DNA of 64,000 bases from Psammoneis japonica (lineage: Eukaryota), in the NCBI GenBank assembly GCA_008632985.1, contig QPGO01000013.1:496001-560000 (forward strand). Reading direction: 5' to 3'. This document shows positions 13,847 through 64,000 of the stretch, in pieces (within the stretch, counting starts at the first letter, position 1; each line of letters starts with the position of its first letter). The translations under genes were made by a program, and so were the position numbers. The notes under the pieces are model-generated. The model was not told the origin of the DNA. It was given only the letters and a program-made list of their open reading frames with translations, and searched no databases.

Positions 13847-13849
13847 CCC

Positions 13850-16423: not shown

Positions 16424-17741
<1,318 letters not shown>

Positions 17742-34407: not shown

Positions 34408-35453
34408 ATGTCTTCCTCTTCAGCTACTGTTACGTCATGTCTAAACATTCTAGATAGGGTACCACCCTGTGATATGGAGAAAGTAAGTACATAGTGATAC
34501 AAAACGTACGATACGAAAACTCAGAAAGATATGCCGATCTTTTTTATCTTATTTCAGCGTTTGTTGCCTCCCTACTTTTCTAGAACATTGAAGGCCTGTC
34601 GGTTCTGTTATCTACAAAAGAAACGACCGAGTTGAATCACGCGCTTCGTCATGTTGTTCCACTCAAAGTTGAAGAGGATCCCAAGGCCGAGGACAATCGC
34701 CCATTTCTTCTGTCGGAGTACAATCGAGTTGCAAACACAAATTCCTATCGCTCTCCGTGGACAAATACGATATATCAGCGCCCTTCCATGACGGAAGATA
34801 CAGGCTCGTCGTCTTCGTCTTTACCGCCACCGTTGGTTCGTGATCTAGAACAGCACGCCAATGAGGTGTGGAGTGTTTACACCGACATGTATTACGGAAA
34901 AGGCGCCGTCGGATCCGTGTATTTATGGCAAAAGGAACAAACGCTCATGGCGGGGTGCTTTCTCGTTCGCAATCAAGTTCAAAATGATGATGAACTGTCG
35001 GAATGGAACAGCCTTCATCTCGTCAATGTGACTCCACAACAGGACGGTGCAAAGGCCAAGTACGCTGTGAATTCGTCCGTATGGGTGGTTTTGCGCGACA
35101 AGCAAGATAACAGCTCGTCCACCATTTCTGGAGTCTTGCATCACAAGCCCGTGTCCAAGATTTGTGCATTTGATGCTGCTACACCTTCAAGTCATGTGGA
35201 GAACCTGGGTCCAATTATGGAATCCATTGACAGTGACTTGAGATCCAACATGCACTCTGTCTGTCTAGGCAAGACATTGCAAGTGGCTGAATCCATCCGA
35301 ACGACAACAGGTGGTGGGATTGTCAAGCCAACCAAGAAGAAGGTTTTAGGTGGGATCCCAATGGTTGGTTTGGGAGCTGGTGGAGCAGAGCATGCCGCCA
35401 TGTTGAATCAAGCCATTCTTGCACGTAAACTCAAAAAGACAGGGATCGAGTAG
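34408..35453 (+). CDS. CAPZB: F-actin capping protein beta subunit-like; exons 34408-34482 and 34584-35453 (intact copy)
   Basis: FLLSEYNR...SYRSPWTN, LEQHANEVWSVYTDMYYG..VGSVYLW and HVENLGPIME match CapZ-beta motifs. Phase-0 GTAAGT...TAG intron. Confidence 0.85.
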
Positions 35454-35601
35454 TGTCCTTTCTTCTAAAGAAGGGGATATAGTTTGGTATAGAATAACAC
35501 AGCAGTTATATTGGACAGATGGACATGTTGCACATGGATCACCATTGTTTTGTATCGTAATAACATTCATTATTCACTGAAGGTGCGTCAATTAAACCGT
35601 G

Positions 35602-36148
35602 CTACACACCAACACCGCAAAAGGTTCCACAACCAGAACGCTCATACGACCAGGCTTCCTCTTTCTTCCACTTTTTGAATTCCTCAAAAGATATTTTTCC
35701 ATCTCGGTTCGAAAAAATGGAATTAAACTCACGGATATTATGGAACGTGTCAATGTCAAGGTCGAGCTCGGAAATAATTGCCATGAACCCATCAATGTCA
35801 AGGAAACCGTCTTGGTCGTTGTCGAACTTGCGAAAGTCAATAAACAGAATGGCGTCATCCATTTTGTTGCGGCAAACGCCTTCAATCCTTCTAGCTGGAT
35901 TATGACCAACACAAAAGGCAAGCAACCCAACAACCATGAGGATGGATCCAGCAATGGTCGTCTCGAGGACAGGATGGCTTGCTTGAAGCAATCCCAACGA
36001 GAAAAGGAAAAGGCCGCGACCCCATCAAAATCACACAAAGCTCAAATGCTTGGTTGTAGAATGCCGTGCCAATGTTGAAAATGATTTTGGGTCAGGGCTC
36101 CAAAGCTCACATGCAGGTCAAGTCTAAGGCGCCCATGATCCAAGAAGC
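35602..36148 (-). pseudogene. 3' part of a duplicated EF-hand membrane protein gene
   Basis: Near-identical to 52286-52828. In-frame TGA at 36025-36027 where the intact copy has TTA (LLWGRG). Homology stops at ~36148. Confidence 0.85.
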
Positions 36149-39100: not shown

Positions 39101-40165
39101 CAACAAGCCCATCACAGGGAAAAGAAAGTTTACAACACACATCTCTCTCCGTGGAGTCAGCACATGAAACAGACCTCCCCCCTGCCTTTTTCTCATGCCT
39201 CAAGATGGCGGGCTCTGCTTGTGAAACACAGGCTGACCTCACCCAACAACCACCAAACCTCATCAACTCCAAATCAGCCAAAGAAACACCTTCCTTCAGC
39301 CAGCACCCTAAAAAATGTCAACAGCTTTGTCAGCCTCCTTTTTCTCCATGTCCTCATTGAGGTTTTTATCATCAGGGCAGCCATGGCAGAGCTTGAGAAG
39401 CAGGCCCACATGCCTTGATTCATCCCCAGCTTGCTTGACAAAGCACCACCAGCAAGAACAAGCAACCTTCCAAGACACCCAAGAAGCAACCACCAAGTTC
39501 CCCAACGGGGCACAATGAGGAGGAAAAGTGGCCTCTGTGTCAGACAAAAAGGAGTCTGTCTTCTTTGCACTCAAATGACCAGCCAGTGCTTCAGTGGACA
39601 GCATTGCTTGGCTTGCTTCTGTGGACAGGGAAACAAGGTCCAATTCTCTGGGCACCTGCAAGGATGTGGGGAATTGATTGCTGGCAGGTCAAGGTTCTTT
39701 ACTTTCAGACATTGTCAAGAGAGTCAGTTTTGACAATGACAAAGATCAAAAGGAGAGTGGCTGCTGGTCCACCAGGACTTGTCCAATCACAGTGGATGAA
39801 AACACCACTGAATCACACTTTCAACTTTGTCAGCTTGTCAAAAGTTGGGGGTGACAAAGCACAACAAAGACAACAAGAAGCGCAACACAGAGCGTGTTGA
39901 TGACGATGACAAGCTGTTCAACGCTGCACTGCACTCTCCAACCCACTGCACCCAACCACTTGTGAAGGCTGTCCCTGCAGTTGTCAAGTTGATTGGAGTG
40001 GTGTGTGATGGTGAAAATGATGCTGACGAGACATTTTGTGATGCTGGCATGATGGGTGTGTTGCTGAGCCCTTGGTTTGTGGGCAATGAACATCCAAACG
40101 AAGCCCAAGAGCATTGTGGATGCCCTTCTCCCTTGGGGTGTTGAGTGCAATGTCACTAGTCAACA
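36100..40165. other. CpG/TpA-depleted degenerate domain 2
   Basis: Same dinucleotide signature as domain 1. Confidence 0.9.
36950..37225 (-). pseudogene. Degenerate ubiquitin-like domain gene
   Basis: MFVKMFMGKTIDL...GKQLED...LDCNTQKESSMHLVLCLCGG vs ubiquitin IFVKTLTGKTITL...[28 protein letters not shown]; frameshifted. Confidence 0.85.
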
Positions 40166-40478
40166 GCATCGAATGTTTTATCTCAGTTTGAAGACAATGA
40201 GCGAGACACAGCCGCCGTTCAGCGAAGCGTCCAATCCAGCTGCCGGCACGTGACGAATCGCATGTGGTCTCTCAGCGAGAGTCTGTCAACCCATCCGGTG
40301 CGCGGTTCCCAAATATGACGGGAACGAACTTATTTTTTTTGCAACCACCGACCACCGCACTGCGAGGGGAACACCATGCACCATGCATCAACCATCACCA
40401 CCACCGCACCGAGAAGAACCATTGATCATACCGGTACGGTAGTTCTTTTCTATTTTTTATCCCAACTTTTCTTTAAGA

Positions 40479-42241
40479 ATGACCACTGCCGCTGCTGTCA
40501 ACGTTGGACAAGTTGTTGTCGTCCCGTACGTGAATGAGTCAGGTCTGCGACGTGAATCGACTCTGCAATTTATGGTGAGAGAGTCACACCCCGCCCTCTG
40601 GAACGTATTGGACGCGTCGAGCTGCCTTGTCGACGGTCCTCCAGGCTCAGGCAAGTCCACCGCGGTATGGCTGTGGCTGCTGGAACGAGTGCAACGTACA
40701 GGGAATGCTGCGCTATGGGTTCATTTCACAAAAGTGGGCTATATGCTTGCTGTCGTCATCAAACGTGCGGAGGAAGAGCGTCTACTGTTCAACAAGGTCC
40801 TGCGAAAGGACCCCTTTGATGATCACGAGGTACAAAAAGCTGTACGTGTATGCGTAGTGGACGGAGTTACGGCTGACAACAAAGACAAGGCTGGTGAGAG
40901 TTGGTATGTTTTCGGCATGGATCCCAGTGTCTACCCAAACTGTCATATGATTTGGGTATCCAGCCAGCAGCTTGTAATACCTGGAGAACATCTAACGGTT
41001 GTCAAAATGGAGAGGCACCTGTTTTTTTCGTGGGCGAAGGATGAGATCATTGCGTATGCGGCAACCTTTGACCCTGAAACAAGAAGCAATTTTGTACACG
41101 ACATTGTCTCCGGATTGCCAAGCCGGCGCCTTACGCCAGGAGAAGTCATTGATTTCGATCAAGCTGTTGCCATCAAAATGCACTACTGTGGATGCTCGGC
41201 TAGATGGATGTTTGGAATGACAATGAAAGAAGCAATAATAGACATAGAACTGCACTTGTCGAATGTGCACGATGCAAAACTGATTCAAGCTGGATTGTCT
41301 GGGGCTCGAGGGCTGACTGCCGTGAATCATATCATTGCGACGTATGAGTCTGACGACCCAGAACATCTGGGTCTCTTTAGTATTGCAAGTAACTTTATCA
41401 TGGAGAAAATTTCAGAGACCGTTGGACTAGAGGCCATACGCGTCATGTATTCAAGCCATTGGGTAAACAGTAACCCTTCTGTTCACGGATTTGTTTTTGA
41501 ATGGGACATTCTTACAAGGCTCGAAAAGTTCAAGTCGCTTACTCTCACTGATTTGCATGGTTCAAACACAACATGGAGCATCACTAAGTCAGTGCGCTTA
41601 AGTGATGTTATTTATCACGGCATTACAGCCGACAAAATGTTGGTCTACCCGGAAAAGTGGAATCACCCCGAGTTCGACGGGTTGTATATACATAGCGATC
41701 AAGGTGGTCTACACTTGGTGGCCTGGAATGCATCGGAAGCAACCACACACTCAGGAAGCGTGTCCAAGCTTGTCGTATTGTTGGAATCGCTTAGCCAACG
41801 AGAAGTGGGATCAATCAACTTTGTCAACGTCCGTTTCTTGTTTCTGGTGCCAGGCGAGACTTTGGCAACTTTCAAAATGCCCAGGAATTCTCATCGTTTG
41901 TTGGCGAGACAGCAGCTTGCGGCGCACCCCTGTGGTAGGGGAGAATATGGTGATGTCATGGTTACGTGGCAGTTTATATCTTATTCATTATATTTTTATA
42001 TAAATGTCCTCACATTTATTTATGCATTTGTACGAATTTTTACTTATGGAATATACACATTCGTGTGGATATTAAGATTGAAACTCAACGCACGGCGAAG
42101 CCGTGCGCACACAACCACGCACACACACAGAGCTCCCCTGCCACAGGGGTGCTTGCGGCGTGGTCTTTTGCCGACTTTAACGCGGACGCTGACCTAAGGA
42201 TGGATCGATGTTTGGCGGTCGATTTTATTTGGAGCTCGTAA
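40479..42241 (+). CDS. Crinkler/CR-like P-loop NTPase with a probable restriction-endonuclease-fold C-terminus; interrupted near the 3' end by a TIR element
   Basis: Walker A GPPGSGKST, Walker B-like VCVVDG, GCSARWMF, GFVFEW, YPEKWNHPEFDGLY. Removing the insert and one TSD copy gives ...QQLAAWSFADF...FIWSS* ending at 42241. Confidence 0.7.
41925..42151. mobile_element. 227-bp non-autonomous TIR element (MITE) with 9-bp TSD
   Basis: TIRs CACCCCTGTGGTAGGGGAG / CTCCCCTGCCACAGGGGTG (18/19 match). TSD CTTGCGGCG at 41916-41924 and 42152-42160. AT-rich interior. Confidence 0.92.
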
Positions 42242-42261
42242 ATGTTTAAAAATAACCCGGA

Positions 42262-42566
42262 TTCTTCGCACCAACAATGCGCGCGTTCGCCAAAAATGTT
42301 CAGCGATGGGTCAAACTTTGTCCGTTCGCAAGATGTCAAGGTTCGGGATCTCTAGAACAAGCCAGTCAAACGCCAATTATCGGCCTTTCCTGGAAAGTTG
42401 CGGCTTGTCTACCATGAACAGTCCGATTCTGGCGAAAAACAGCAGTTCGTCGAATTTGGCAACCGCACCCAATGCGACAATCGGCGTTTGAAGGTTGACA
42501 AGTGTGGTTCATGTCAAGGTCTGCCAGCCCTGATGGGGGCTGGACACACACACAAGTGTTTGGGGG
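42262..42566 (+). repeat. Largely unmutated copy of the repeat at 13850-14160
   Basis: Alignment by eye; retains CG and TA in its left part. Confidence 0.8.
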
Positions 42567-42991
42567 GTGCTCAGATGCATCGCAAAATGACACGGGTGAA
42601 GTGCGAGCAAATTGCAGAATCACGAGCTGTTTGAAAAAAATGCCGCCAAACATCGATCCAGCCCCAATGATTGCAGTGTCAGTTGTTTTGTCACCCCCCA
42701 CTGTGCAGACCGGTTCAGTCCAGTGCACTTCCGATGTGGGCGCTGTGCGCCCCAGTCCGGACTGACCCATCTGACTGAATGACACCCCCTCCACGCAGAC
42801 AGGATTTTGTTGCACGTGACATCATCGCGCGCCCGCGTGACCACGACTTGAAGATTCTGTCTTGCGCATCCAATGCCCACACCAATCAAACCATCAAAGA
42901 CACAAAACCATCACCTCCCTGTCACCGTCTCTCTTGTCGTTGCCCTCTGCCGACACTGGACATGCGATGCGACACCACGACATCAGCCATG

Positions 42992-43429
42992 TGCAGCATG
43001 CATGCAGACAAAAGGTCATTTTTGTCATGCCCTTTGTGACATTTAAAGGCTGCAACACGTCGCCGTGATGCATTGACTCTTGTTGGTGGCTGTGTGTTGC
43101 ACTCCTCCCCATGTGTCATGCGTCCATGCGGCTCTTTGCTAATGTGTGCTGACACTGCACGGTTTTGGCAGAACAGTGTGGGTGCGTGCGAAGGAACACA
43201 CAGAACTGCACAGAGTTTTGTGCATTCGACAGTGATCAACGTTGCTGCAGACAACTCCCACTCAGGGTTTCGAACCCCTGGCCTCCTGCCTGATGGTTGC
43301 GATGAACCACTCCGCTGTGAATTCACAATGCAGCATGCACGCAGACAAAAGGTCATTTTTGTCATGCCCTTTGTGACATTTAAAGGCTGCAACATGTCAC
43401 CGTGATGCATTGACTCTTGTTGGCAGCTG
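42992..43429 (+). repeat. 101-bp direct repeat pair (42992-43092 and 43329-43429)
   Basis: TGCAGCATGCA.GCAGACAAAAGGTCATTTTTGTCATGCCC... is identical except at YR dinucleotides. Confidence 0.92.
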
Positions 43430-43439
43430 CACATTGCAC

Positions 43440-44204
43440 ATGGCGACCACCCGTCAAAAAGAAAAAGAGAGTTCTGAAGAAGCACCAAGGGACTCCACGA
43501 TGATGGATGCTGCTCCTGATGGCAGCAACAAGTCGGGCGGCAAGGCACGTCTGTTTGTGTGTGTGTCCGCCCCAATCAAACTGGTCTGTTTCCTGTCTTG
43601 CTTGTGTCACGCGGTGACACGCGCGCGGTGACCTGTTTTAAATGAAATGCCCGGTGACCTGTTTTTTAAACAAAGCTTTCTTTGGTCAAAACCTTTTCTC
43701 TCTCTGCGTGCACAGAGGAAGGCCACCCCTGCCAATGCTGCCATTGAGCCCACAAGGAAGAGCGCCCGCAATGCTGCACGCCTCAAGGCCAAGGAGGATG
43801 CTGCCAAGGCTGGCAAGGGCAAGGGTGGCAAAAATGCCACCACTGCTGCTGCTGCTGCTGCAAGCAGTGCCAAGGCTGGCAAGGGCAAGGGCGGCAAAAA
43901 TGCTGCTGCTGCAAGCAGTGCCAAGGCTGGCAAGGGCAAAGGTGGCAAAAATGCTGCTGCTGCTGCTGCTGCAAGCAGTGCCAAGACTGGCAAGGGCAAG
44001 GGTGGAAAAAATGCTGCCACTGCCAGCAGCGGCAAGGCTGGCAAGGGCAAGGGTGGCAAAAACACCACCACTGCTGCTGCTGCTGCTGCTGCTGCAAGCA
44101 GTGCCAAGGCTGGCAAGGGCAAGGATGGAAAAAATGCCACCACTGCTGCTGCTGCTGCAAGGGGGTGCCTTTTCCAAGCAAACCTTCATTTGATCCTCAA
44201 ATGA
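43440..44204 (+). pseudogene. Probable two-exon gene remnant encoding Lys/Ala/Gly tandem repeats
   Basis: Exon 43440-43544 (MATTRQKEKE...SGGK) joins in phase to 43716 (RKATPAN...) after a pyrimidine tract and CAG. The donor reads GCACGT. Confidence 0.5.
43803..44160 (+). repeat. Six tandem units GCCAAGGCTGGCAAGGGCAAGGGTGGCAAAAATGC-(TGC)n-AAGCAGT
   Basis: Directly visible; translates as AKAGKGKGGKN(A/T)nSS. Confidence 0.95.
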
Positions 44205-46200
44205 CAAAAATCCAGCTGACATGAAAACAGGAAGCTCAAACAAGGCGTGGGTGCAGCCCAGCAGCATCAACGCCGCCACATCTTGGAGGATGACAACACG
44301 CAACTGTTTCAAGAGTCCAACAAAGGCACATGCCATGGGGTGCTCCGGGCAAGTCACACTCCTTCTGCCATGCCTTCCAGCCAAGGAAAGATCTCCTTCT
44401 GCAATTCATCTGAAGGCTGACAGAGGGCACGTGAAACAAAGTGGGTTCCAGGCTCCTTTGCGAAGCCAGCTGCAACCCTCATCGCCTGGAATTGTTTGGT
44501 TAAAACAAAATGTGAGTTTTAATTAAAAGTGAAACAGGCCACACGCAAGTGCAACAACTCACCTTCAAGGGCAGCTTTGTGGAGTGGTGAGCATCAAACA
44601 CACTTGGGTCCCAATTTCCAAGAGCTTTGATGAGATGAGACTCCAGCTCCTCCAACTCTAACTCAACTGTGTCTCCAACATGTCCAAAGTGCAAACTGCA
44701 GTTGATGAGCAGGTCAAGCCATTCTTTCAAATGATCAAACCAAGCAGTGTAAGATGACGGAGACATGCACTGTGTGTTGGGTGAATTGGTGCCATCTCCA
44801 GAGGATGTGCCAGCCTTTTGAACGTCCACAAGGAGCTTGATGTTCCACCATGTTTCCTTCCATTTGAGATTAATCTTCTCCCATTCCTTGCTGATCTCAA
44901 AGCGTCCTGTGTTCAAAAAGAATTCCAGCAACAGTTTGCCCAATTAAAACGTTTTGTAAAGCCAAAACAATCAGATGTGGTTGGATGCGCACTGAGCAGA
45001 TAAAGACCCAGTGCACCAATGGAGTCCATTCTCACATCTCTGTGTCACATGACATGGCCAAACAGCGTGCTTTTGCCATTGGTTTTGCCTGTGAACATCT
45101 GCATGATGAGCACCAGGTGGGCCTGTTCCTCCTTCCTTGCCTGATGACTGAAGCTGCGAAGATCACTCAGGTCAGCCTTGAGGGGAGACTCCCCACGGGA
45201 AATGGCTTGCTTTGTGTGCAGCATGAAGAAACGGTTGCACAGAGCAACTGTTCCATTCAGCAATGTCCCAGAAGAATGTTCCCAGCAACCCTCCTCCAAC
45301 TCTGGGAAATGCTCATGGGCCAGGCAGGGCGACATGTCACCAGAAACCTGACCGGGTTTGAGGTGGACAACACAGCACAGGTCAGCGGTTTTAAATGAAA
45401 ATGTGAAACACATTTTGATCAAGACTCACCTTCTCATCCATCTGTTTCCATTTCTCTTGTGCTTTCCTGGACTTGACAAGCCTCTTGAGATGTCTGATGC
45501 TGCTGGAATTTTCACAACGAAGCAACACAGCAGGATCTCTGCCATGTGTTTCAAGCTGATGAACAAAGAGTCGTCCAAGGGATGCACAAGCCTGGTTGAC
45601 AACATCCCACTGGCACAGCTTGTTGGGTTTGCTGACACCAGCTTCTGTCTGGTCAAGCAGCTCAGTCTCGTTTGGAATGTCCACTGCATCAGTCAAGGGA
45701 TTGCTGGCTGTCACCCTTTCAAAGAGCTCAACATCAAAGATTGGCCTGGTCTCTCCCTTCTTTGCCCTGCCCCTCTTCTTTTGTTGGCAAAAGGCACAAC
45801 GGAACAGGCAAATGAAGGCTTTTTGCTCATCAATCAAATGCTTGGTGTCTCCCAATGAGGCATGCTTGTGGTTGCATGTTGTGCAGAACTGGCTCTCGTG
45901 TCTGCCAGAACAATTTAATTAAAACAGGGGAGAGGGTCAGACAAAAACTTTAATTAAAACACATCATCAAAATGCAGGTGTGACAAGGGTTCAATTAAAA
46001 CTTGCACCTTCATTGCTTTCTTTGTGTTGTTGTCTTTGTTGCCCAGGTCATCGTGCATGTCACGCACCAATCTTGACTGCTGAGCAAAAGCGTCAGAGGT
46101 GAGCTCATTGGAAGCCCCCATTGCAGCCATCCCAAGAGTGGCTGTGGAATTGACAACAGGGTCTCTTGGCATTTTGGACCGGTCATTGTGATGCAATGCA
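44200..46200 (-). mobile_element. Degenerate Crypton-like tyrosine recombinase (Ndc10 domain II-like) element with introns
   Basis: MFTGKTNGKSTLFGHVM..H, LHFGHVG...IKALGNWDPSVFDAHHSTKLP and LLKQLRVVILQDVAA...HALFELPVF fit the Crypton/Ndc10 pattern. GTGAGT donor near 44560. Confidence 0.7.
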
Positions 46201-47899
46201 GAACAGGCTGACGACGCCAACAATGACGGCGGTGCTGTTGTTGTTGTGGTTGTTCTTCTCGTGCATGGTTGCAGGGAAGCCACTTGAAAAGGAGTCCTGA
46301 GATGGAATCCCGATGTCCGGCGCTGCGTGGCATGCAATCTTGACGTCAAGTGCTGAGCCCAGCGAAACAACTGCAATTGTTTGCACAAGTCTTGTAAAAC
46401 AATTGGATCATTTTTACAAAATTGCTTGGGGCCCCACATCACCAGTCCGGTCCGGGGCCGGTCCGGACCGGCCGGTCTGCTGAACACAATGAATGAAAAC
46501 ATGCAAAGAATGATGCACAGACGTGCACCAATTTTGGTTGTCGATCGCGATTGATGAATGATTCGCCAATTGCAAGCTGATTGGGCATGATTTTTACAAT
46601 GTTTGCACCACTTCTTGCAGACGCAGGTCTCTCACCCCTTCATTTGTCCGGTGTCCAGTCTGACTTCAAACCACATCCCTGCAGGTGCAACCATCAGGGA
46701 CGACCGTTGGGGAGCCCCCCTTCATTTTCCAATGGATGGCTCACAGTTTTTTCACAGCAACTTTCTTCATTCCTTTGCAACTCAATTGTCAACATGTTCC
46801 CACGCACAACTCTTGCTGCAGTGTGGTTTGCCTGTGTCAGCTCACCCTTTGGGTGTTCCAAAAAAAGCATCTTGAGGGAGCCTGGTCAACATCAGAGGCT
46901 GCAGTGCAGTGGTTTGCACTTTCCTTTGTAAATTTTTTAATGTGCATTGTCAAAATTGTTAACAAGCAGAATTTAAAAAATGCCAGCAAAAGTGCTCAAC
47001 AACATGCAGCTGTTTTTTGCATTTCATCTGATGTCTCATTAACTTTTCTTGCACAAACTTCAATCAAATGCATGCAATGTTCAATTTAATTGGGATCGAC
47101 ATCTGTTTTTTGTGGTGCATGGTTTAGTTTCCTTTCAATCGCAATCAATTTGAACTTGGTTTTAACTTTGTCCTCCTCACTCATGTGTGCATGTCTTTGC
47201 ACATGTGCAGTCTGCTGCACATGCAGCACTTCACACACGCACGTGACCCACCTTCATTTTTCTTCATGTTTCCCAGATTTGCACAGCCCGTTGGTCTGCA
47301 GCATTTTCAGCACATTTTTTGCATGCGCAATTTTCTGCACACTTCATGATGGCACACCCTCACCCCAAAAGTTGAAAAACGAGAGCGTGCGCTGTTGTGG
47401 TTCATGTGGATCCTGCGTGTGATCGCAAATCTGCAAATCGACAACCGGCCATGGTGGTGAAAGACTTCACCCCATTGGCCGATGACAGCAGCTCAATGCA
47501 TGGTGAAACCTGCTGTCCTTCTGGCTGGTCAAGATGGGTTTTGATTCAGGCACAGCTTGAGTTTCATGATGCGACTGTGCTGTCACGAATCCACCATGTC
47601 GAAGAATCATCATGCCGAGCTGGCATGTCATCATGTGCACGCACATCACAAACTTTTCTGCAGCATTGGCAAATCATGCATGTCAGAGTTTTGCATCCAG
47701 AGTCATTGCAAGTGGCCACAAATGACGCTCTTCAAACAAGGCATGTGCAAAAAGAGGTTCATTGGTTTTTGATGCGTTCATGCCAACAACGCATCCGTCT
47801 TCTCCAATTTTTATGTCCAGATCCAGAAAGACGACCGCAGATGTGCTGTGGCCACTGTTGTTGTTGCCATCGTGTTGTTGTTGCTGTCACCATTGTCGT

Positions 47900-48890
47900 C
47901 ACACATTTAGAAAGAGGGGCGCACATCCAAATCTCATCACATGTGAAGTTGTTTTCTGGTGCTGTCTTGGTGCATCTGCTGAAGTCCACCATGCCCAATG
48001 TGTTCTCCAGGGGATGGTTGACCATGGGTCATTCTGTCATTGCTGTGCAAGTGTTTGTGCTGTTGGTGGTCTTGTGGAGTGCCAAAGTTGAAGGTGTGGC
48101 TTCCACATGTGCTGAGCTTTCTTTGTGTGGTTTGCCAACATGTCCGCTGCCTTCTGCAAAAGGGATTCTTTGGACATTGTGTGCCTCTTTGTGCACTTTC
48201 TCCAGTGCTCTGCATGCCCCCCCATGCTTTGATCATGAGTTTCCCTGGGCCCTTCTCTGATGTTTGTGCTTGCTTCTTTGTGATTGCCAGATCACCTGGA
48301 TGGAACTTGTTGCCTGAACGGCTCTTGTTGGTGAGGGTTTGGTGGTGGTTTCTGCAATCTTTGATGAGCAACTTCAATGCAAGTTGCTGTTTTGCCAGGA
48401 GAGGGAAAGTCACACTCACATGTTCTGGCACTTGTTCCCCCTGATTGGTGTTCTCCAGTGGAACTGTTGCTTCTTGGCAAGTGTCAACAGGAAAGGGAAA
48501 ATCATGTCCCATTGCTGCTCTGCTGCTTCCAACAATGTTTGTGCCTTCCACTGGTCCATTCTTTTAAGGATTGGCAGTCTGCAGTTTGTGTGCACTCTGT
48601 CTTGTTCAGATGTTGAAAATGCCTCTCACACAAAACAGCCTTGTGGTGTTTTCTCTTGTTGCTGTGCAGGCTTGCATGCCCAGCAGGCCGCACAGTTGCA
48701 GCGCCAACCCGGCAAACTGTCAACCTGCATCCACAAGCGCAAGTCTTGGTGAACTGCAGAGGGCAGTGATGCCATTTAACTCCCACACCAGTGCAGACTG
48801 GAGTGCTGTCAGCAGCATCTCTGCTGGGCTTGTGCCTCTGGATGGCAAGCCTTGGGCATCATGGTGTTGTCTCCGTCAGCATCATTTAAA
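47900..48890 (-). mobile_element. Degenerate Ty3/Gypsy-like integrase C-terminal region
   Basis: EGTNIV...AAMGHDFPFPVD and FHPGDLAITKKQAQT...GPGKLMIKA resemble integrase C-terminal motifs; frameshifted. Confidence 0.5.
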
Positions 48891-49422
48891 TTAAACACAA
48901 ACAACAAAGTGGAATGTTTGCAATGCAAATGATTTAATTTGCAGGTTTTGCAAGATTGGAGGGTGGGCACTCTCACAGGGAAAATGGTTGGCTGTTTCAC
49001 AGTGAATGGTGTTGCCTCGTGGGACAGCGCTGGGCTCCATGGCAACAAATTTTGTCTTTCACAGTTGACAAATTATCACCACGTACACAGCTGCCAAGGT
49101 TTGAAACCACAGAATTTTTAATCACAAAAGGAAAAAATGTCGCCATGAGAACAGAGGTCTGGATCACTGCAATGCGTGCTCTGATGAACTCCTGGCTGCA
49201 TTGTCTTGCGCAAGCAACTCCCTTGGGACTGCAGCGGTGCTTGGGGCCAGTGGGAATCTAGACAACTGGGGAGCTTCGGACAGTTTTTTGTTTCAAGGAT
49301 TGGACCCAATGAAGCGGTGTCTCTGACTGCTTTCTGTGGGGCTTGAAAGGTGTCCAGTCCAAATTTTGAGAGCTGTTTGGATCTCATCCATGAGTTTTTT
49401 AGCAGCTTGTGGGGATGCTTTC

Positions 49423-49770
49423 TCTCTCTTGATCTCATCTGAAACAGAAAGTCCAGGGCAGCCATTTCTTTGTTGCTGCTGTCATCCATCTTGCTGGCAT
49501 CTGGAGGAGTGTGTGTGGATGGTGCTGCCTTTGGCACCTCTTTCTTTTTGCTCCCTCAAAATGTCTCATGGTTGTTGTTTGTTGTTGCTTTTTTCGTGAC
49601 AGCCAAAGCCCATCAAAAACCTGCAGCTGGGCCAGCTCCAAGCAAGCTCAGCTTGGCTGCTCTGCACTGAGATGGGATCTTGAGGCATCAAGAATCTGAA
49701 CCTCTTTGAACACCATCAACTCTCAAAATGCTGTTTCTTTTACAAATGTTCAAAGAAGAGCAAAAAAGTG
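49423..49770 (-). pseudogene. Hypermutated 5' end and upstream region of the EF-hand membrane protein gene
   Basis: PKAAPSTHTPPDASKMDDSSNKEM vs PKAVPSTYTPPDVNEMDDSSDEEM; aligns to ~53234-53560. Confidence 0.85.
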
Positions 49771-50199
49771 GAACAAACATTTGCCAGCAATTTGCAGTTT
49801 TTGGAATGAATGTTCCGGATGTTTTCCTGGCCATTTGACTGAATTCAGTCAATTTTGAGGAACTGGCTGCATTTGAAAAAAAAAATGGTTGTTGATGCCA
49901 TCTGATGCATGAAAACAATCCATTCATGCCTGAACAACAAAGCAGCACCATTGGATTCATCAAAATGAGCAAAACAAAGTCAAAAAACAAGCTTTTTAAG
50001 ATGGTCATGTTGCGACGGAAAGTTTCTTGCCAAGTTCAGTGGCCACTGCAAGTTTGTTGCTCCGCCTCTGACAAATCATTTGCAAAGCAACTGCTGCATC
50101 AAATGACACCTGGGCCACAAGTGCAGTGTGTGCAAACCCTCCTTTGGCATGTGCTGTGATGATTTCTGCACCTTGGAATTTTTTTCTGTGTGTGGCAGG

Positions 50200-51300
50200 G
50201 TGGCAAGCCTGCAAGTCAACAATGATGATCTGGGGCTGTGTCTTGGTCTTTCATCCTCTTCTCTTGCAAGATGATCATTGAATGTGAGATTGTGGGCAAA
50301 CAGCTTGCAATGTTCAAGTTGCTCTGGGAGTGGATCATTCCAAAAGTCCCGCAAGGCAACAATTCACTCCAACTGCCCCAAGAATGAAAGCATGGGGATG
50401 ATTTGGTCACCACCTCATGCCCAAAGTCTCCTCCAAACTGATTGGACTCTGCCCTTGTTGTGGTCATCAACAGCATGGCTGAATTTGTTGGGATGCTGGA
50501 AGGTGTCGTGCCAGTTCTTGCCATGAACAGTGCACAGCCAAGTCTTCTGTCTGCCAACATGCTCATTGGTGTTGCAAAAAGACATGAGCATCACAACATG
50601 GTTTGGCTCTTTTGTTGCAAATGCATTTGCTGGTGCATTGTTGAGAGTGCCTGCAATGGATTCAGCATTGCTGGCCTGCTTGTCATTGAAGTGCGCAATG
50701 ACTTCATCCCTCTTCTTTGTGTTCCTTGGCCACCAATGCTGATGCTTCTTTGTCAATGCCATGGCAAGCTCACCTTTTGTTCAAAGCTCTGCAATCCCCC
50801 AAAGCACACAAAAGCCACTGTCCAATGCAACAACCTTGGCACTGTTCCAAATGGGTTTTGAGAGTCAAAGCAACAGCCCAGCCATTTTGCCTTTGTCGTC
50901 ATCATGCTTGGGTCTTGGTCTCTCCTGTGGTGCTCATCATTGCCCTCCACCAGCTCAACAGCATGCATTGCACAAGACAATCCACAGCATCTGGCATGAC
51001 ATTCATTTCTAAATGGCTGCAGCTTCCTTGGACAAAATGCAAAGCCAGGGCAGGTGTGTTGGTTCATCCAAATGGACACAGACTCATCAATGCAACTCAC
51101 TCAGCTTGGAGTGAAGTTCTCCATCATGTTGTCATTCCAAGCTTAAATCATCTGCCTCACTTCATGGAAAGGATCATTTTGCAAATTGGGGCCTGCTGAT
51201 CTGTGCATCAGATGCATCTTGGGATTTCCTCAAACCTGTTACATGACATGAGATTACAAAGTTAGAGTGGAGTGCTGTCAAACCTTGTGATTGCCTTGGT
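50200..51300 (-). mobile_element. Degenerate piggyBac-like (DDE_Tnp_1_7-type) transposase
   Basis: CIDESVSIWMNQHTCPGFAFCPRKLQPFRNECH..CCGLS...VELVEG, KKHQHWWPR, KEPNHVVMLMS, AVDDHN. Confidence 0.8.
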
Positions 51301-51466
51301 TGACCAAAAGCCACTGTGCCATGGACCTTGAATGGCAGCCATCAAAAACCACATGCTGATCCAATGCAAGCACTCACCATGCTGCACTCTCTCTCTCTCT
51401 TTGCACATCATTTGCATCAATCTGGGGAACAATTGTGCCCAACACAAACAACTTTGAAAAGAACAA

Positions 51467-52133
51467 TCCATGCTGGAAGATGCAGGCTCATTGTCATTGT
51501 CCTTGTGCCACTGCCTTTGGTTCGTGCACTAGAACAGCATGCCAATGAGTTGTGGAGTGTTTGCACCAACATGCACTGTGGAAAAGGCACCATCGGAACC
51601 ATGTGTTTGTGGCAAAAGGAGCAAACACTCATGGTGGGGTGCTTTCTTGTTTGCAATCAAGTTCACAATGATGATGAACTGTTGGAATGGAACAGCCTTC
51701 ATCTCATCAGTGTGACTCCACAGCAGGATGGTGCAAAGGCCAAGCACACTGTGAATTCGTCAGCATGGGTGGTTTTGTGTGGCAAGCAAGAAGCCAGCTC
51801 ATCCGCCATTTCTGGAGCCTTGCATCACAAGCTGGTCTCCAAGATTTGTGCCTTTGGTGCTGCCACGCCTTCAAGTCATGTAAAGAACCTGGGTCCAACT
51901 GTGGAATCCATCGACAGTGACTTGAGATCCAACATGCACTCTGTCTGTCTCAGCAAGACACTGCAAGTGGCAGAATCCACCCGAACGCCAACAGATGGTG
52001 GGATTGTCAAGCCAACCAAGAAAAAGGTTCCAGGTGGGATGCCAATGGTGGGTTTGGGAGCTGGAGGAGCAGAGCATGCCGCAATGATGAATCAGGCCAT
52101 TCTTCGCGTAAACTCAAAAAGACAGGTATCGAG
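51467..52133 (+). pseudogene. 5'-truncated, hypermutated copy of the capping protein beta gene
   Basis: Colinear with ~34785-35453. VYTDMYYGKGAVGSVYLW has become VCTNMHCGKGTIGTMCLW. 1-nt deletion near 52105. Confidence 0.92.
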
Positions 52134-52285
52134 TAGTGTACTTTCGTCTAATAAGGCTACAAACCATGATAGATTTTTTATCACAGGATTTATATTGGAC
52201 AGATGCCCATGTTACACATGGATCACCATTGTTTTGTATCGTAATAACATTCATTATTCACTGAAGGTGCGTCAATTAAACCGTG

Positions 52286-53377
52286 CTACGCACCAACACC
52301 GCAAAAGTGTCCACAGCCAGAACGCTCATACGACCAGGCTTCCTCTTTCTTCCACTTTTTGAATTCCTCAAAGGAAATTTTTCCATCTCGATTCGAATCA
52401 ATGGAGTTAAACTCACGGATATTATGGAACGTGTCCATGTCAAGGTCAAGCTCGGAAACAATTGCCATGAACCCATCAATGTCAAGGAAACCGTCTTGGT
52501 CGTAGTCGAACTTGCGAAAGTCGATAAACAGAATAGCGTCATCCATTTTGTGGTGGCGAATGCCTTCAATCATTCTAGCTGGATTGCGACCAATGCAAAA
52601 GGCAACCAATCCGACAAAGATGAGGATGGATCCAATAATGGTCGTCTCGAGGGCAGAATGGCTTGCATGAAGCAATCCCAACGAGAAAAGGAAAAGGCCG
52701 CGACCCCATAAAAGTCGCATAAAGCTCAAATGCTTGGTAACGAAAAGCCGAGCTGATGTTGAAAATGATTTCGGGTCTGGGCTCCTAACCTCACAAACCA
52801 AGTACAAGGCGCCCATGATCCAAGAAGCCACTGCAGTCATGCCGTGAGAAATCGTTGTCCAGTTCAAACCCTCACTTAGATACTGGTCATACACGACAAG
52901 AACGCTTGTTAAGTACATTGCAGTCACTGCACAGATACAAAAGTAGCGAATCACCATTGGTCCGTCTTCGGCACGTGACCTTAGCTTTTCGAGTTGCTTG
53001 CTCTTGGAAATGTCCTTGTCGACTGCGATACGTTCCGCCTCCATTTCAGATCCTTGGTAAGGGATTTCCTTCTTATCAGGATCTTGCACTGATTTCACAT
53101 CTTTGTGGGCTACAGATGGACTCGCGATGGCGGAGGGACCCTTTGGTTGCTTGCCCGACAGCACAGTGTCCGTCTCCTTTTTCGGTCCGGAAGCCGCCTT
53201 CTTTTCTTGGTTCTGGTGATTGGAAGCTGCAGCCTCTCGATCGCCTGAAATAGAGTAGTCCAGTACAACCATTTCCTCATCACTGCTATCGTCCATCTCA
53301 TTAACATCTGGAGGAGTGTATGTGGATGGTACTGCCTTTGGCGCCTCTTTCTTTTTGCTCCTTCCAAACAATCTCAT
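52286..53377 (-). CDS. Multi-pass membrane protein (COPI-associated/Tvp15-like) with two C-terminal EF-hands (intact copy)
   Basis: About four hydrophobic segments; FMRLLWGRGLFLFSLG; DYDQDGFLDIDGF and DSNRDGKISFEEF. Confidence 0.85.
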   Translation of the reverse strand: MRLFGRSKKKEAPKAVPSTYTPPDVNEMDDSSDEEMVVLDYSISGDREAAASNHQNQEKKAASGPKKETDTVLSGKQPKGPSAIASPSVAHKDVKSVQDPDKKEIPYQGSEMEAERIAVDKDISKSKQLEKLRSRAEDGPMVIRYFCICAVTAMYLTSVLVVYDQYLSEGLNWTTISHGMTAVASWIMGALYLVCEVRSPDPKSFSTSARLFVTKHLSFMRLLWGRGLFLFSLGLLHASHSALETTIIGSILIFVGLVAFCIGRNPARMIEGIRHHKMDDAILFIDFRKFDYDQDGFLDIDGFMAIVSELDLDMDTFHNIREFNSIDSNRDGKISFEEFKKWKKEEAWSYERSGCGHFCGVGA

Positions 53378-53958
53378 GGCTGCTTCTTTCACGACAGTCC
53401 AAGCCTATCAAAAACAGAAGCTCTAGCTAGACTAGTTCCAATTGAGTTCAATATAACTACTCTGTGACTAGATGGGTTCTTGAGACATTAATCTGCAACC
53501 TCTTTGAACAACCAAACACTCGCTCTGTTCACAAATTTCAACTGCGAAGAGCAAAAAGTGAAAGGAACCTTGGCGATCGATAGTTTTAAGTGAATATCGC
53601 GCTTCGAATGTTAAATCATATTTGGCGATACAAAAATAGTACTTTTCTTGTGACTCGAGAAGCGTTGGGGCAATAATAAAATTTCAATATTATTATATTT
53701 GAACGTATATATATTCCAAGTCACTAATGTTTCAAACGGACGTGATTATGAACATACCGTACGGAAAAGCGCGGGAAAAGACTTCGTCTGTTCCGCGTCG
53801 GTGAAACACGTACTTTTCGCTCATGCTCTTCAGCTTCCCGCCACCTCTCACGCACGTCATTCGCATCTGGAGAATCTTGTCAGCCATCACCGCACATCTT
53901 TAGTCTGTATCACTGCCAACATCGTCACAATTATTTGAAATCACCGTTTGTGTTTGCC

Positions 53959-55162
53959 ATGAAGTTGTCTCTCGCGTTCCTTGCTTCATCCTCGGCGGTT
54001 TTGTCGGTATCGTCCTTTACTGTCCCACCTGCCGCCTTTGCGCCAACGACTCACACTGCTGCTCGGCAAAATGTGATCCTTGATGCGAGCCGAAGGCGCG
54101 ATAAGATCGCATCGGTCACCAAGTGGCTTGAATCGAGAGGGCAGGCCAGCGAAGCCGTCGTTATGGACAAAGTAGAGGCTGGTCTCATGAAAAATGATGA
54201 GGGACTAGAGTACGTCAAGCTCGTTCATCCCGAGACGGGGGCGACCTCCGACGTTTATCTCTATGGTGGCGTCGTGACTTCTTATGTGGATGGTGATGGC
54301 CAGGAATACATTGCCGTCCGCCCCGATGCCAAGATGGATGGATCCAAGCCGATTAGTGGAGGTCTCTCGCACTGCTGGCCTCAGTTCGGACCCGGTGAGA
54401 TTCAACAACATGGATTCGCCAGAAACGTCGATTGGACCGTAAAGTCAATGACCGACACCTCTGTCGAACTCGAGATGGCTCCGTCGGACTACACCAAGGA
54501 AATGTGGGACAAGGAGTTCTTGTGCACCTTTTCCGTCAACCTCGAGGATGACCAGCTATCAACCAAAATGCAAGTTGAAAACACGGGAGAGGAATCGTTC
54601 GACTTCCAGGCGGCGCTCCACTCCTACTTTACGGTATCGTCCATTGACCAGTTGGAGATTGCCGGATCCTTCGAGGGTAAGGAATTCTTGAACAAGATGG
54701 TAGGTGACGAAGGGGAAATGCAGACAGAGGACCGTGATGTCATTACCATTTCCGAGGAATACGATCGCGTCTACAAGGGTGTGAATGATCCTGTGTTGAA
54801 GGACGCTGGAACTGGCAAAACGGTAAGCTACTACACTTGAATATCAAGTGCAAAATTTTTGCTGAACTATTTCTCAACACAAATTCTTGTTCGTTCAAAG
54901 TTGTCGGTGCTCAATACAGCCGGATGGGAAGACACAGTCTTGTGGAACCCTTATGGAAATGAAGGCATGGGATACAACAACTTTGTTTGTGTCGAAAGCG
55001 TCAAGGTAAGGTTCCTGGCGAAACAAGTCTCTCGAATGGCTCATTGCACATCATCTCACTCTTTATTCGCCTTTACCTACAATTCAACAGTTTGACCCTG
55101 TTACGCTTGATGGAGGAGCCTCTTGGACGGGAGATATGGCACTCAAACCTGGAACACTTTGA
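53959..55162 (+). CDS. Plastid-targeted aldose-1-epimerase family protein (glucose-6-phosphate 1-epimerase-like); exons 53959-54822, 54901-55005, 55091-55162
   Basis: PISGGLSHCWPQFG, QHGFARN, FQAALHSYF, DTVLWNP, FVCVE. Presequence MKLSLAFLASSSAVLSVSS-F. Two GTAAG...AG introns. Confidence 0.92.
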
Positions 55163-59440: not shown

Positions 59441-62400
59441 GATTCTGAAGACCAGACAACACAGGCCAACACAGCCTCTACTCTCTAGAGTGTCAAAGCT
59501 GGAGTCCTGCAGGTTGGCACACAAGAAAACGTGCAGTGCTCTACCAGCAGGAATGTCAAAGCAGCTGTGGTGGCACTCTCCTTGCTGCTGCTCCCTCTCA
59601 CCTCCTCATGTCTTGCACTGTGGCATTTTGCAAAAAAGCACGCTCTGACGATGCGACTGTTCAGCTGCACAACAGTGGAGTTAGAAGCAAACTGTGGAGG
59701 CATTTCAACCACCTGTGAGTCCCACAGGACAATGCTGAAGAACAGCCCAAGCTGCTGGCGTGGGGGCAGGGTTGGGGCTCTGAGCAGCTCATTTCAAATG
59801 CCTGCCTCATGATGTGAAACTGATCTTTTTCCCAAAGAAGCCAGGTGGAGAGAAAACAGCACTTTGTGCAGGCTTTTGTTGGGCAACAGCAGCATTAAAC
59901 AGAGCTGACTGCAACAGCCAAAACATGGGCTGTGTGCCATTCTGACATTGTTTTTCTTTGTGCTCTGTCAACCATGCCACCTTGACATTGTTCTTCTCTG
60001 TGTTCCTTTCCTTTTGTCAAAAAAAATCTGCAGCAGTTGTCTGGTGGTGCAACAATCTGACAATGCATTTTTTGTTTTCATTTTAAAATTTCTTGCACGC
60101 TGTGATGCAAATCTTGGTTCTCTGATTCAATTGTTTTTGTCGTGTCGCACACAAGAAAATTCAAATGCAATGAGCACACGGATGATGTTCCTGACAATTT
60201 CAAGTGCAACACTTGGTTGCTTTTCACTGTGCAACAAATTGCTTTCTGTTCTCATTCTGACTTTCAAAGGACATCCTGTCTTCAATGAATTTTTTGTTGT
60301 TGAAACTGTGAGTTGAACTCCAGTCATTTTTGCTGCTGTCATCATGTGCTGCTTGCCAGCAAATGCTGCCACTCTGCTGCCTGTGTGGTCATGTGCTCCT
60401 TGTCCACTGCTGTGAGTTGTCACTTGCTTGGCCTGCTTGCGTGGAAGTGGCTGCAGTTGTCTGCAGGTGCTGCTCCTGGAGTCTCTTCCTCTGAATTCCC
60501 ATGTGCATTGTCACCTCCCTCCACTTTCTCATTGCTGTTGCTCTGGCCAGTTTTTGGAGCAGCCCACCCCTTTGTTCTTTCCTTTTTCTTCCTCTTTCTT
60601 TTGTTGCCACATGCACTCTCTGACACTTCTTCATCTGCAGGCACTGTCCATTGACTCTGTTGCGCTCCTGGTCAGCTCCTTTCTCTCTTTTTCTGCTGCG
60701 TTGAACAACTCATTGCATCTGTTGATTCCACTCTGGTTCCATCCTTGATTTCTCTTTGCATTCTTCCTTTGAAAGGTGTGCTTGGGGGGGGGNNNNNGGG
60801 GGGGGGCAAAGGCTGTCTTGTTTCTTCCACTCTTCCATGTCTTTCTTCTCCTTGTGTTGTGGCTCCATTTCTGCTGTTGCTGCAGCTGTCTTGCAGTGAT
60901 TTTCATGCATTAGCCTGGCAAAAGTTTCTGTGCTTGTTGTCCTCAGCCAATTGCTGGTGTCTTGGTTTGCTGCCATCTCAAACTGCTCTGTTCCAGCTGC
61001 CATGGAGTGGCAGTTTTCTGAGAACCAGAAGTGCGTGCATGGCAACTCCCTGCCCTTTTTGAAGTTGTCAACAGCTTTTGGGCTGTCATCTCCAGCCAAA
61101 GCCAAGCAAGAACAAATGGGTGAGGAGCAGTCTTCTCCATTGCATTTCGACACCACCTGCATTGCATGCACCAACCATGTTTTTCCCAAAAACCTCCTGT
61201 CTGTTGTTTTGTCCCCAATTTGGTCTTTTCTTTGCTTCTCCTTCTTCTGTTCTTGCCAAACTGCACAGTCACTGTTGGCCATGTTGAGGTGTTTGCAAAC
61301 CGTTTTCTGCATTTTACTGCCAAAAGCCAACTTGACCTTGTCACATGTCATGAACTTGCTCTTTGGGTGCACTGCCATTGCAGTGCAGTCAGCTCTCATT
61401 TGACCATCCACAAACTTCCTTTTTCAGCTGCCTCTGAGCTGCTGACTGACATCCCTGCAATCTGCACATTGCGGGACCCCATCTCTGTGTGTCATGGGCA
61501 CTGACTGCAACCAAAAACACAACCTGTGTTGGCAGCCAAACCCACATCTGTCTCAGTGTTGCTTTCACCACAATGCATGCACCTGGTGAATTGTTTTTCA
61601 CCAACATGTTTGCCCATGCATTTCCACAGTGTTGTGTCCCCAAGATTTGTTTTTCAGCATTGACCGCAGGCCAATCGCACCTGCCAGCACAGTGTTGGCC
61701 TTTCTCTTTTTTTGCTTCTCCTCTTTGAGTGCCAAAATTTTCAAATGGCTCAGTTCACAACATCAATGCACACATCATGGCATTGTGTTTGAATGGCATT
61801 TTTTCCAATGCTGCAGCTCCACATCACATGTCCACAGTTGCATGCAACACACAAAGAACAACAACACTGCTGCTTTTTTCATGCCACATTTTTTCAAATG
61901 GGTTGCCAATTCAACAAATTTTCAGATGCTTTTGTCAATTCACTGAGTTCCAGCTCAGTCTCATTTGGGCTGAGGCTGTGCAACTAAAAGGAGCTGCAGT
62001 CATGCTGCTCCAAACCTGTGATCTTGGTTGGCTTGTGACGGGAACTTTCAGCACTTGGTTTGCTGTCTGGGACCCCATGCTCTTGGACCTTGCTCATCAT
62101 CTCTGACCCTTCTTCCTTGCTCATCTTGGCCCGTGTTGACCTGCAAACTTGGAACAAGTGCTTGAGACAAGGGTCCAATCCCATGTGATGTCCCTCCATT
62201 GCCAACTGGACACATGCACAGTGCACCCTCAATCCAATGAGTTTTTTCTCTTTGCAAAACACCATGTCTCCACTGACTGCAGGAGGAAACCAATCATTGA
62301 TCAGTTGGTTTTCCAACACCCTGTCATGTTTTTCCAGATGAACTGCATCTGTCATTGTTTGCTCATCCCTGATGTTGAATGGCTCCCACACATGTGGTGG

Positions 62401-64000
62401 CAGAGAGCACACACAAAATTCTTGGGAATCTGCAAGTCTTGTCTCCTGGCTTGCACCCAATCACTGTGGTGCAAGGCCGATGCTGCCAGGTGTGCAGCTG
62501 CTCCACCACTTTCTGTTTGCTGAAACTGAAGATCAAAGCATCTCTGTCCAGGTGTTCATCAAAATGGATGCATCTGTTTCTCACAAATGTTTCCAAAAAA
62601 TGCATCTCACCAGTGCTGTTGAAAGTCTTGCCATCTCACAGCAAAATGAAAATTGAATTTTTGATGGCCACAGCATGGCCCACTTTTGTCAAGCTCATGG
62701 TGTGAATGGAGTGGCATGAAACTTGCCATGCACTCTCTGTGCAACCACTGCACTGGCTCAGCAGGCCTGTGCTTGTGCGCCAAAGCAAACCTTGGATCAC
62801 CCATGTCACTGTGCATCTCTGTGCATGCATTGTCATCCACAATCACCTGTTGCAAAGTGTTTGTTGTGTGATGCCACATGCATTTCTTCACTTTGTCCAT
62901 TTTCAAAAGATTTTTGTGTCAAGACAAGAAAAAAAACATGGTGAACAAGGCTTTCTGATTGTGCCAGGTTTTCCAGCTCAGGCAATTGCAGGCATTGGGA
63001 ACAGCACCCTGGCAACTCTGCCACAGTTTGTTTTTTGATGTTGTTCATCACTCTCCAGTGACAACTTGGCATTGTTGTTCTCTGTTGTGTTTCTTTTGCA
63101 GTCCAGCTGCATTTTGCAATTGTGGTTTTGTTGCCAGAGGGGCAGCAGTCATGATTTTTGCCAAACTCAAAATTTTGGTGGGGGGGCAGCAGCCACACCA
63201 TTTGCTTGTTTGAAAAATGTGGTGTCTCAATTTTCATGATTGAGGTGCGTTGTTTGTGTGTTCTGCATTTTGTGCAATGAATGACATTGAACATTCAAAA
63301 CTGTGCTTTTTTGTGTCAAATGTTGCTCAAATGGTGCATGAAATTTTGATCATCATTCTTCATTGTGTCATTTAATTTCCATTGAATTTGTGGTTGAATG
63401 AAATGCACTGTTGCCAAAATTGGTGACCCACAATTTGTCATCACCCTTGGTGACAAAAGGAGAAACAACATCATCAAATGGTTTGGAAACAAATTCTTTG
63501 TTGTCCAGGTGTGCTGGCACTCTGAAACATCATTGGCAGCTGGCCAAATGGCAGTGTCATGAGAAAGATGTGGCTCTCACACTTGTGCCACTGCACGATT
63601 GGATCTCAGTGGCCAGGGATTGTGTTGCAAGTCCACAAGACAAATGTGGCATTGGAGTGAGATCCCGTTGCAACCATTTCAACAGGAGGAGGGGCAAAGG
63701 TGGCTGGAAGAGGCAATGGCATCACCTGATTCTTTGGATTCTCTTGTTTGCAGCTGTTTGCCATGAGCATCTGTCAACTCATTGCCTGAAACACCACAAA
63801 TGCATTGAGAAAAGGAGAGTTTGCAGAGCAAACAAGCTCTGAGGTGATGTTAAAGACCAATTGGGAGGAAACATTTGCCGCAAATGGGGCAATCATTTCC
63901 TGCGGCAAAGGAAGGCATCATTGTTCATGCTGCAAACAGAGTGAGATGGAGATGTGTGGGAAGCAAAAATGAACAAAATGTGAGCCATGTGGCAAAAGCA
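59390..64000. other. CpG/TpA-depleted degenerate domain 4 (runs off the window; 5-N gap at 60793-60797)
   Basis: Same signature; fragmentary minus-strand coding remnants I cannot name. Confidence 0.9.

Follow-up and report, generated by a model that had tools for sequence, protein, structure and literature searches.

Conversion of CG and TA to TG/CA at an insert-flanking duplication in the diatom Psammoneis japonica

Repeat-induced point mutation (RIP), as described in Neurospora and other ascomycetes, is triggered by duplication and strikes both copies, makes only C:G to T:A changes so that G+C falls, prefers CpA (which becomes TpA) in most ascomycetes, and can leak into adjoining single-copy DNA; a methyltransferase of the RID/DNMT4 type and a sexual phase belong to it. 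In vertebrates and plants, silenced transposons lose methylated CpG, and a TCG-biased hypermutation of CpG has been reported for basidiomycete transposons. Adenosine deaminases with a preference for a 5' U or T are known as well, namely TadA/ADAT, which act on transfer and messenger RNA and of which TadA has a substrate with UAC, and ADAR in hyper-editing. The present analysis concerns a stretch of 64 kb from the pennate diatom Psammoneis japonica (contig QPGO01000013.1, positions 496,001 to 560,000), called the window below, in which a 1.36-kb direct duplication flanks a 15.3-kb insert. Where one copy of the duplication (copy B) adjoins the insert, its CG and TA steps have become TG or CA, while those of the other copy (copy A) have not. 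At this locus the change took place in the DNA where it stands, is specific for dinucleotide and neighbouring base, and is independent of homology. The reading favoured here, at somewhat better than even confidence, is that whole blocks of the window were mutated in place by CG to TG/CA and TA to TG/CA changes, and that the target was set by chromosomal domain and not by repetition.

The G+C of the window is even, at ~0.47 throughout, and the blocks become visible in sliding dinucleotide counts, which delimit four stretches depleted in CG and TA: ~1,900-15,950, ~36,150-40,100, 42,500/43,750-52,000 and 59,500-63,850. In all, ~30 kb of the window are almost without CpG (observed/expected ratio, O/E, 0.16, against 0.97 outside the blocks) and TpA (O/E 0.05), and TG/CA is up 1.8-fold within them. 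Pooled converted DNA (30,254 bp) has CG, TA and CA/TG frequencies of 0.0094, 0.0031 and 0.1145, compared with 0.0544, 0.0419 and 0.0713 in pooled normal DNA (27,403 bp). Because the total of pyrimidine-purine (YR) steps, 0.2415 converted and 0.2389 normal, and the base composition, with G+C at 0.484 and 0.474, are both preserved, CG and TA have been swapped one for one for TG and CA. ATAT occurs 92 times in normal DNA and never in converted DNA, and GTAC 96 times and once. The share of CG+TA falls below 0.10 in 101 of 254 segments of 500 bp from the window, and in none of 3,034 control segments of that size from 790 kb of unrelated DNA, the lowest of which stands at 0.191. The edges of the blocks lie 190-700 bp from the ends of open reading frames (ORFs).

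The continuity of the duplication, asserted in an earlier note on this DNA, is borne out. In a blastn self-comparison the two copies are 87.59% identical over 1370 columns; they carry the 3' halves of two convergent genes, and each joins one working gene half to one dead fragment, gene 1 being intact at copy A and gene 2 at copy B (Table 1). Contigs from a short-read DNA run, X1, which contains 97% of the window words sampled and is possibly the assembly's own source data, bridge both insert junctions (35996-38335 and 48998-51942) with 0 differing letters; another lies at copy A (34040-35258, again with 0 differing letters), and one runs on to the right at copy B (52680-54000). Since these contigs match across the junctions, neither the structure nor the converted letters are miscalls. 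Contigs of a second run, X2, behave as complementary DNA: one of them is spliced, covering 34234-34482 and 34584-35499 of gene 1 on either side of the GT-AG intron 34483-34583. Gene 2 and the converted blocks are without X2 contigs, an absence that is not used as evidence. Past either end of the duplication, purine/pyrimidine-coded alignments and diagonal scans found no homology above shuffled controls or background, apart from a 260-bp fragment of gene 2. An older tandem unit with an offset of 3.8 kb was also considered, and was dropped when the same alignments and scans gave no signal above background.

Table 1. Features of the window discussed in the text (coordinates are those of the window)
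Feature	Position	Strand	Remarks
Copy A of direct duplication	34785-36148		blastn self-comparison, alignment, short-read contigs
Copy B of direct duplication	51467-52828		blastn self-comparison, alignment, short-read contigs
Gene 1, F-actin capping protein beta subunit	exons 34408-34482 + 34584-35453	+	PF01115, E = 1.5e-43; intact only at copy A
Dead gene 1 copy, 5'-truncated	51467-52135	+	alignment; 1-bp deletion near 52105
Gene 2, EF-hand / COPI_assoc-like membrane protein	52286-53404	-	ORF; Pfam EF-hand families + PF08507; intact only at copy B
Gene 2 fragment in copy A, truncated 3' part	35602-36148	-	neutral, largely unconverted
B-specific conversion zone	51467-51911		CG/TA in A, TG/CA in B; plateau 0.89
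CG/TA-poor tract in working gene 1	35120-35420		common to copy B 51802-52102
Copy of gene 2 5' end (53241-53491)	49435-49691		fully converted, deep in block
Converted block, left part of 15.3-kb insert	36150-40150		CG/YR 0.02-0.03, TA/YR 0.01
Unconverted gene island in insert	40200-42500		ORF 40443-42194 (+); run X2 contig 40453-41951
Converted block, right part of insert + start of copy B	42500-52100		dinucleotide counts
MITE-like repeat (miniature inverted-repeat transposable element)	42198-42663 (~466 bp)		42-nt terminal inverted repeats; mostly unconverted, CG-rich, in gene island
Second MITE-like copy	~13890-14200	-	in block 1, converted
Plastid-type GAPDH	16599-17738		91-94% identical to diatom sequences
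Aldose-1-epimerase-like gene	53752-54840		PF01263

For the comparison of the two copies, each aligned dinucleotide position at which one or both read CG or TA was scored, and was called converted where the other copy reads TG or CA. Over the whole duplication 52 such sites are kept in both copies, 41 are converted in B, 16 are converted in A and 17 differ otherwise. The B-specific changes are concentrated beside the block, as the earlier note had said: three 100-bp bins covering 51467-51766 hold 28 sites converted in B, none converted in A and 4 kept, and the first 336 bp of the copy hold 31 converted and 4 kept, against 10 and 48 in the remainder (Fisher p = 7e-12). Within the first ~430 bp, 22 CG sites became TG (12) or CA (10) and 11 TA sites became TG (7) or CA (4), with no strand bias. 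At the 55 residues in which the two copies of gene 1 differ, eight capping-protein homologues side with A at 32 and with B at 7, and copy B is therefore the mutated one; in it, invariant Tyr has become Cys or His, and Arg has become Cys. Further along the duplication the same steps persist. Consecutive bins over 52167-52566 / 35485-35884 keep 9, 8, 8 and 6 CG/TA sites in both copies, with 0-3 converted per copy per bin, in agreement with the earlier statement that 52200-52700 / 35520-36020 retain CG and TA on both sides.

The transition between these two states is abrupt as far as it can be seen. A logistic fit places the drop 444 bp into copy B (~51,911), between a plateau of 0.89 and a background of 0.14, and a pure step gives the best fit (chi-square 56 on 3 degrees of freedom, df). 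The signal had earlier been described as fading by ~52100, of which the drop in conversion stands and the resolved gradient does not: logistic scales above ~90 bp cost more than 2 log-likelihood units, although a gradient up to ~400 bp wide is still compatible. Only 6 informative sites lie within 51,800-52,100, where copy A itself is poor in CG/TA and edge resolution is limited. The gene 1 fragment of copy B is 5'-truncated and frameshifted, and is therefore neutral over its full length, with the step falling inside it. Hence the ending of conversion at ~51,911 is not explained by selection on copy B, and the confounding by selection that had been allowed for does not touch this drop.

A sharp step is also what would be left if another copy of gene 1, already converted and located elsewhere in the genome, had overwritten 51467-~51911 through ectopic gene conversion. 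Working gene 1 itself holds a converted-looking tract of 300 bp, in the same state as copy B, which could have been acquired likewise. In this tract CG and TA make up 8 of 72 YR steps, a share that falls no lower than 0.246 in any of 1,060 control windows taken from normal DNA. The right end of the tract coincides with the compositional edge of B at 52,100. A conserved Tyr reads Cys in both copies within the tract. No site there differs between the copies as TG against CA, so that the common state comes from descent or early gene conversion and not from parallel hits; its cause may be a hit that came before the duplication, or else gene conversion long ago from a copy already converted. As an account of the B-specific zone, however, overwriting is unlikely. 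Divergence other than conversion is not raised in the left part of the duplication (6.0%, against 4.2-11.2% elsewhere), and the values for the five segments compared (6.0, 7.7, 10.7, 4.2 and 11.2%) are similar enough that the segments are to be regarded as of one age. Moreover, the depth of 81.5 over 51343-52009 is near single copy and gives no sign of an additional copy with a likeness of 88% or more, and the synonymous divergence (dS) of the shared tract, 0.25, is not below that of its flanks.

That position and not duplication governs the change, as had been proposed, is best judged from duplicated DNA that is free of constraint. The neutral gene 2 fragment of copy A has, over 35602-35884, 8 conversion-type differences in 283 bp, in both directions, and keeps CG/TA in both copies; the ratio omega between A and B, taken over 140 codons of this gene fragment, is 0.49, in keeping with constraint on only one of the two copies. 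Copy B to the right of ~51,911 is likewise spared. With two neutral duplicated stretches spared and a third, adjacent to the block, 89% converted over 444 bp, position is favoured over homology. A mirror gradient at 36030-36150, at the other end of the insert, had also been suggested, but is not upheld. The last 264 bp of copy A have 6 sites converted and 8 kept, against 4 and 19 further in (p = 0.13), or, in the corresponding columns of copy B, against 2 and 8 (p = 0.39; likelihood-ratio chi-square 7.7 on 3 df), and the surplus divergence there is generic, with 16 other transitions and 13 transversions beside 8 conversions.

These observations bear directly on a RIP-like process triggered by homology, from which selection would have cleared the hits in the working halves. 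The converted stretch does lie within a duplication, the changes are nearly all transitions, and PMC9998398 reports that some diatoms carry DNMT4 genes, of unknown function, related to fungal RID. Such a process is nevertheless quite improbable here, for the neutral duplicated DNA just described is unconverted, A to G changes accompany the C to T changes, and G+C is unaltered. In the fragment at 49.4 kb the number of CG/TA sites kept is 0, even at an identity of no more than 71% to the one partner found for it in the window, the 5' end of gene 2, and the MITE-like repeat in the gene island, a multi-copy element with a summed depth of 2076 over 42005-42671 (~30x single copy), is unconverted in its 42200-42500 part.

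It is very improbable that targeting is absent altogether, all unconstrained DNA drifting to TG/CA and selection alone holding CG and TA in genes. Unconverted DNA does coincide with ORFs and their short flanks, but normal CG/TA levels are also found in the intron 34483-34583, in the intergenic stretch 52100-52286, which resembles an untranslated region, and in the dead gene 2 fragment of copy A, and the 1,060 windows of normal DNA mentioned above have a CG+TA share of 0.246 at the lowest.

Comparable changes in place are recorded elsewhere in the window. The 49.4-kb fragment rises from 71% identity with gene 2 as letters to 89% in a purine/pyrimidine code, with 19 CG/TA sites converted and 0 kept. 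Within block 1, the pair 6978-7251 / 10195-10471 is 72% identical as letters and 94% in the same code, and differs by 65 transitions, 13 transversions and 18 double differences in which one member reads TG and the other CA, the mark of an independent resolution of one ancestral site. Other genomic copies of the insert repeats differ from the window at 308 transition and 60 transversion places; among the 34 best-supported differences, 20 fall at steps that are CG or TA in one copy and TG or CA in another, and 6 of these are double. Although both N gaps of the window fall in converted blocks, a sequencing or assembly artefact, through miscalled modified bases or collapsed haplotypes, is scarcely credible in view of such double differences between independent copies, which miscalling would not produce, and of the X1 contigs, with 97% of words found and 0 differing letters across the junctions, even if that run is the assembly source. 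The gaps are at 13664-13846 and 60793-60797.

The two conversions follow separate neighbour rules. In a multiplicative per-strand model, with hits on the two strands independent of each other, the survival of TA depends on the base 3' of the A (A 0.61, G 0.34, C 0.08, T 0.04; chi-square 8.1, 6 df) and that of CG on the base 5' of the C (T 0.20, A 0.32, C 0.38, G 0.50; chi-square 9.8, 6 df). In accordance with this per-strand model, 5 of 5 TTAY sites in copy B now read TTGY. Surviving TA have a T before or an A after them in 46 of 52 cases in the older blocks, and in 87 of 95 over all blocks (examples are at 5161, 8396, 8504, 13362 and 15187). TTAA accounts for 39 of the 95, and between 43 and 49 kb it is denser than in normal DNA. 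With ~89% of targets converted at ~6% other divergence, the targets are estimated to mutate tens of times faster than other sites.

Set beside RIP, the process at this locus is similar in that dense transitions ruin non-genic or repeated DNA, leave a dinucleotide signature and reach a few hundred bp into unique sequence, and in that two copies lying in the target each receive hits of their own, as in the pair of block 1. The RIP frame in which the locus had first been placed does not hold. CpG sites have gone from C to T and TpA sites from A to G side by side, so that the changes run in both directions, and G+C does not fall; CpA is here the product and not the target, CA/TG rising as TA all but vanishes; in the middle of the duplication CG and TA survive on both sides, and neutral duplicated DNA outside the block is spared; and the host is a diatom.

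The decay of methylated CpG offers a second comparison. Here, too, the change of CG to TG/CA is limited to a presumed silent domain whose edges lie a few hundred bp from genes, and, as in the TCG-biased systems, a C preceded by T is the most sensitive, its survival being under half of that after a 5' G. Unlike such decay, TpA is lost even more fully than CpG and obeys a neighbour rule of its own, so that CpG is not the sole hypermutable dinucleotide; to our knowledge, this loss of TpA has no counterpart in the methyl-CpG decay systems. The extent is also different, since conversion has reached most sites at low divergence otherwise. In the A to G change at an A after T, and in the favouring of a pyrimidine after that A, as in UAC, the TpA component resembles TadA/ADAT and ADAR. 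Those enzymes act on RNA, whereas the change here is fixed in the DNA of the chromosome, in a segmental duplicate that adjoins a working gene and has never passed through retro-copying. In the full-text literature searched, which leaves most subscription journals beyond reach, no description of a joint conversion of CG and TA in diatoms was found.

If the blocks were indeed mutated in place according to chromosomal domain, the following course may be proposed. Two types of transition would hit a silent, non-genic domain, each hit removing its own target, so that TG/CA would be the end state and G+C would remain constant. A rearrangement would have placed the 1.36-kb duplicates on either side of the 15.3-kb insert, and the promoterless gene 1 fragment of copy B would then have come to lie inside the domain and been converted over ~444 bp. 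The rest of B, being in the unit of gene 2, and the whole of A, behind expressed gene 1, would both have stayed outside it. Chemically, the CG changes would come from deamination of cytosine or methylcytosine, and the TA changes from deamination of adenine at 5'-TA or from mispairing of an oxidised or otherwise modified thymine.

A more specific proposal can be put forward tentatively, and is itself doubtful: a dedicated mutator aimed at chromatin, consisting of one or two DNA deaminases or of a paired base modification, might attack, within silent domains, the cytosine of 5'-TCG and the adenine of 5'-TAY and so erase every self-complementary YR step at constant G+C. It would be a genome defence independent of homology, unlike RIP, and would leak into neighbouring and even working genes; the latter leak is suggested by the shared tract in the capping-protein gene.

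Several points weigh against the domain-targeted reading. The analysis covers one locus in one 64-kb window, and the equation of the blocks with a silent chromatin or methylation, that is epigenetic, state is drawn from the geometry of their edges. These edges are asymmetric, conversion ending within ~50 bp of the junction on the A side and reaching at least 444 bp on the B side, and a simple distance rule therefore fails to predict them. The left half of A is under selection, so that the lack of hits there says nothing about targeting. The shared tract of expressed gene 1 sits amid normal DNA, and a spread from the edge after duplication cannot alone account for it. Finally, the segments counted as single copy from their k-mer depth could be ancient repeats, too far diverged to be recognised.

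Such segments are found in the insert, where the depth is ~75 over 36002-38002 and ~70 over 49342-51342, and those inside the blocks are fully converted. Elsewhere the insert is repetitive, with depths of 700-960 at 38003-39336, 2,000-53,000 at 42005-44005 and ~3,500 at 46674-48007. The DNA beside copy B had been taken for a transposable element, a label that is not borne out for that DNA: no transposon Pfam domain was found in 188 block ORFs (85 of at least 80 aa and 103 of at least 90 aa), whose only matches were weak ones below threshold (NDC10_II, OrfA and ARM_LIN_C), and the adjacent 49342-51342 is at single-copy depth. The 294-aa ORF 47376-48257 has 0 relatives in 1.84 billion proteins by phmmer. 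DNA without TA has only TGA stops and thus contains long chance ORFs, of up to 294 aa, which gene finders over-call.

In the repeat-rich 42500-48000, TA is nearly gone (TA/YR 0.01-0.03) and CG only about half lost (CG/YR 0.09-0.14); the two conversions may differ in speed, or the repeats there may have been poor in TA from the start. The repeat 42262-42566, which had earlier been described as becoming converted toward its right end, is part of the MITE-like element. The CG/TA count of the element reaches 0 at 42500, but its one further copy within the window reads identically there and its right terminal repeat retains CGs, so that these letters do not demonstrate such a conversion. The deepest part of the insert (8,800-53,000) holds a tandem array, 43799-44158, with GGCAAGG/CTG-rich units of 51 and 111 bp.

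The host is reflected in the plastid-type GAPDH, which is 91% identical to that of Phaeodactylum and 92% to a Bacillariaceae record. The product of the aldose-1-epimerase-like gene has an N-terminal signal that presumably resembles a diatom plastid-targeting presequence. With GAPDH as query, metagenome contigs yielded 79 loci, among them one genomic diatom contig longer than 2 kb, and no CG/TA-poor windows were present on that single contig.

If the double signature reflects a targeted process, it would represent a second and mechanistically different eukaryotic route by which silent DNA is destroyed through point mutation. It would then also be the first such process seen beyond the fungi, and the first in which adenine (or thymine) takes part as well as cytosine. 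The duplication serves as a natural experiment that separates repetition from location in a silent domain, a matter debated for the leakage of RIP and for the spreading of methylation. In annotation, long false ORFs are to be expected from TA-free DNA, and converted gene copies evade ordinary similarity searches. The sharp compositional edges would make the chromatin domains of this lineage recognisable from the sequence by itself.

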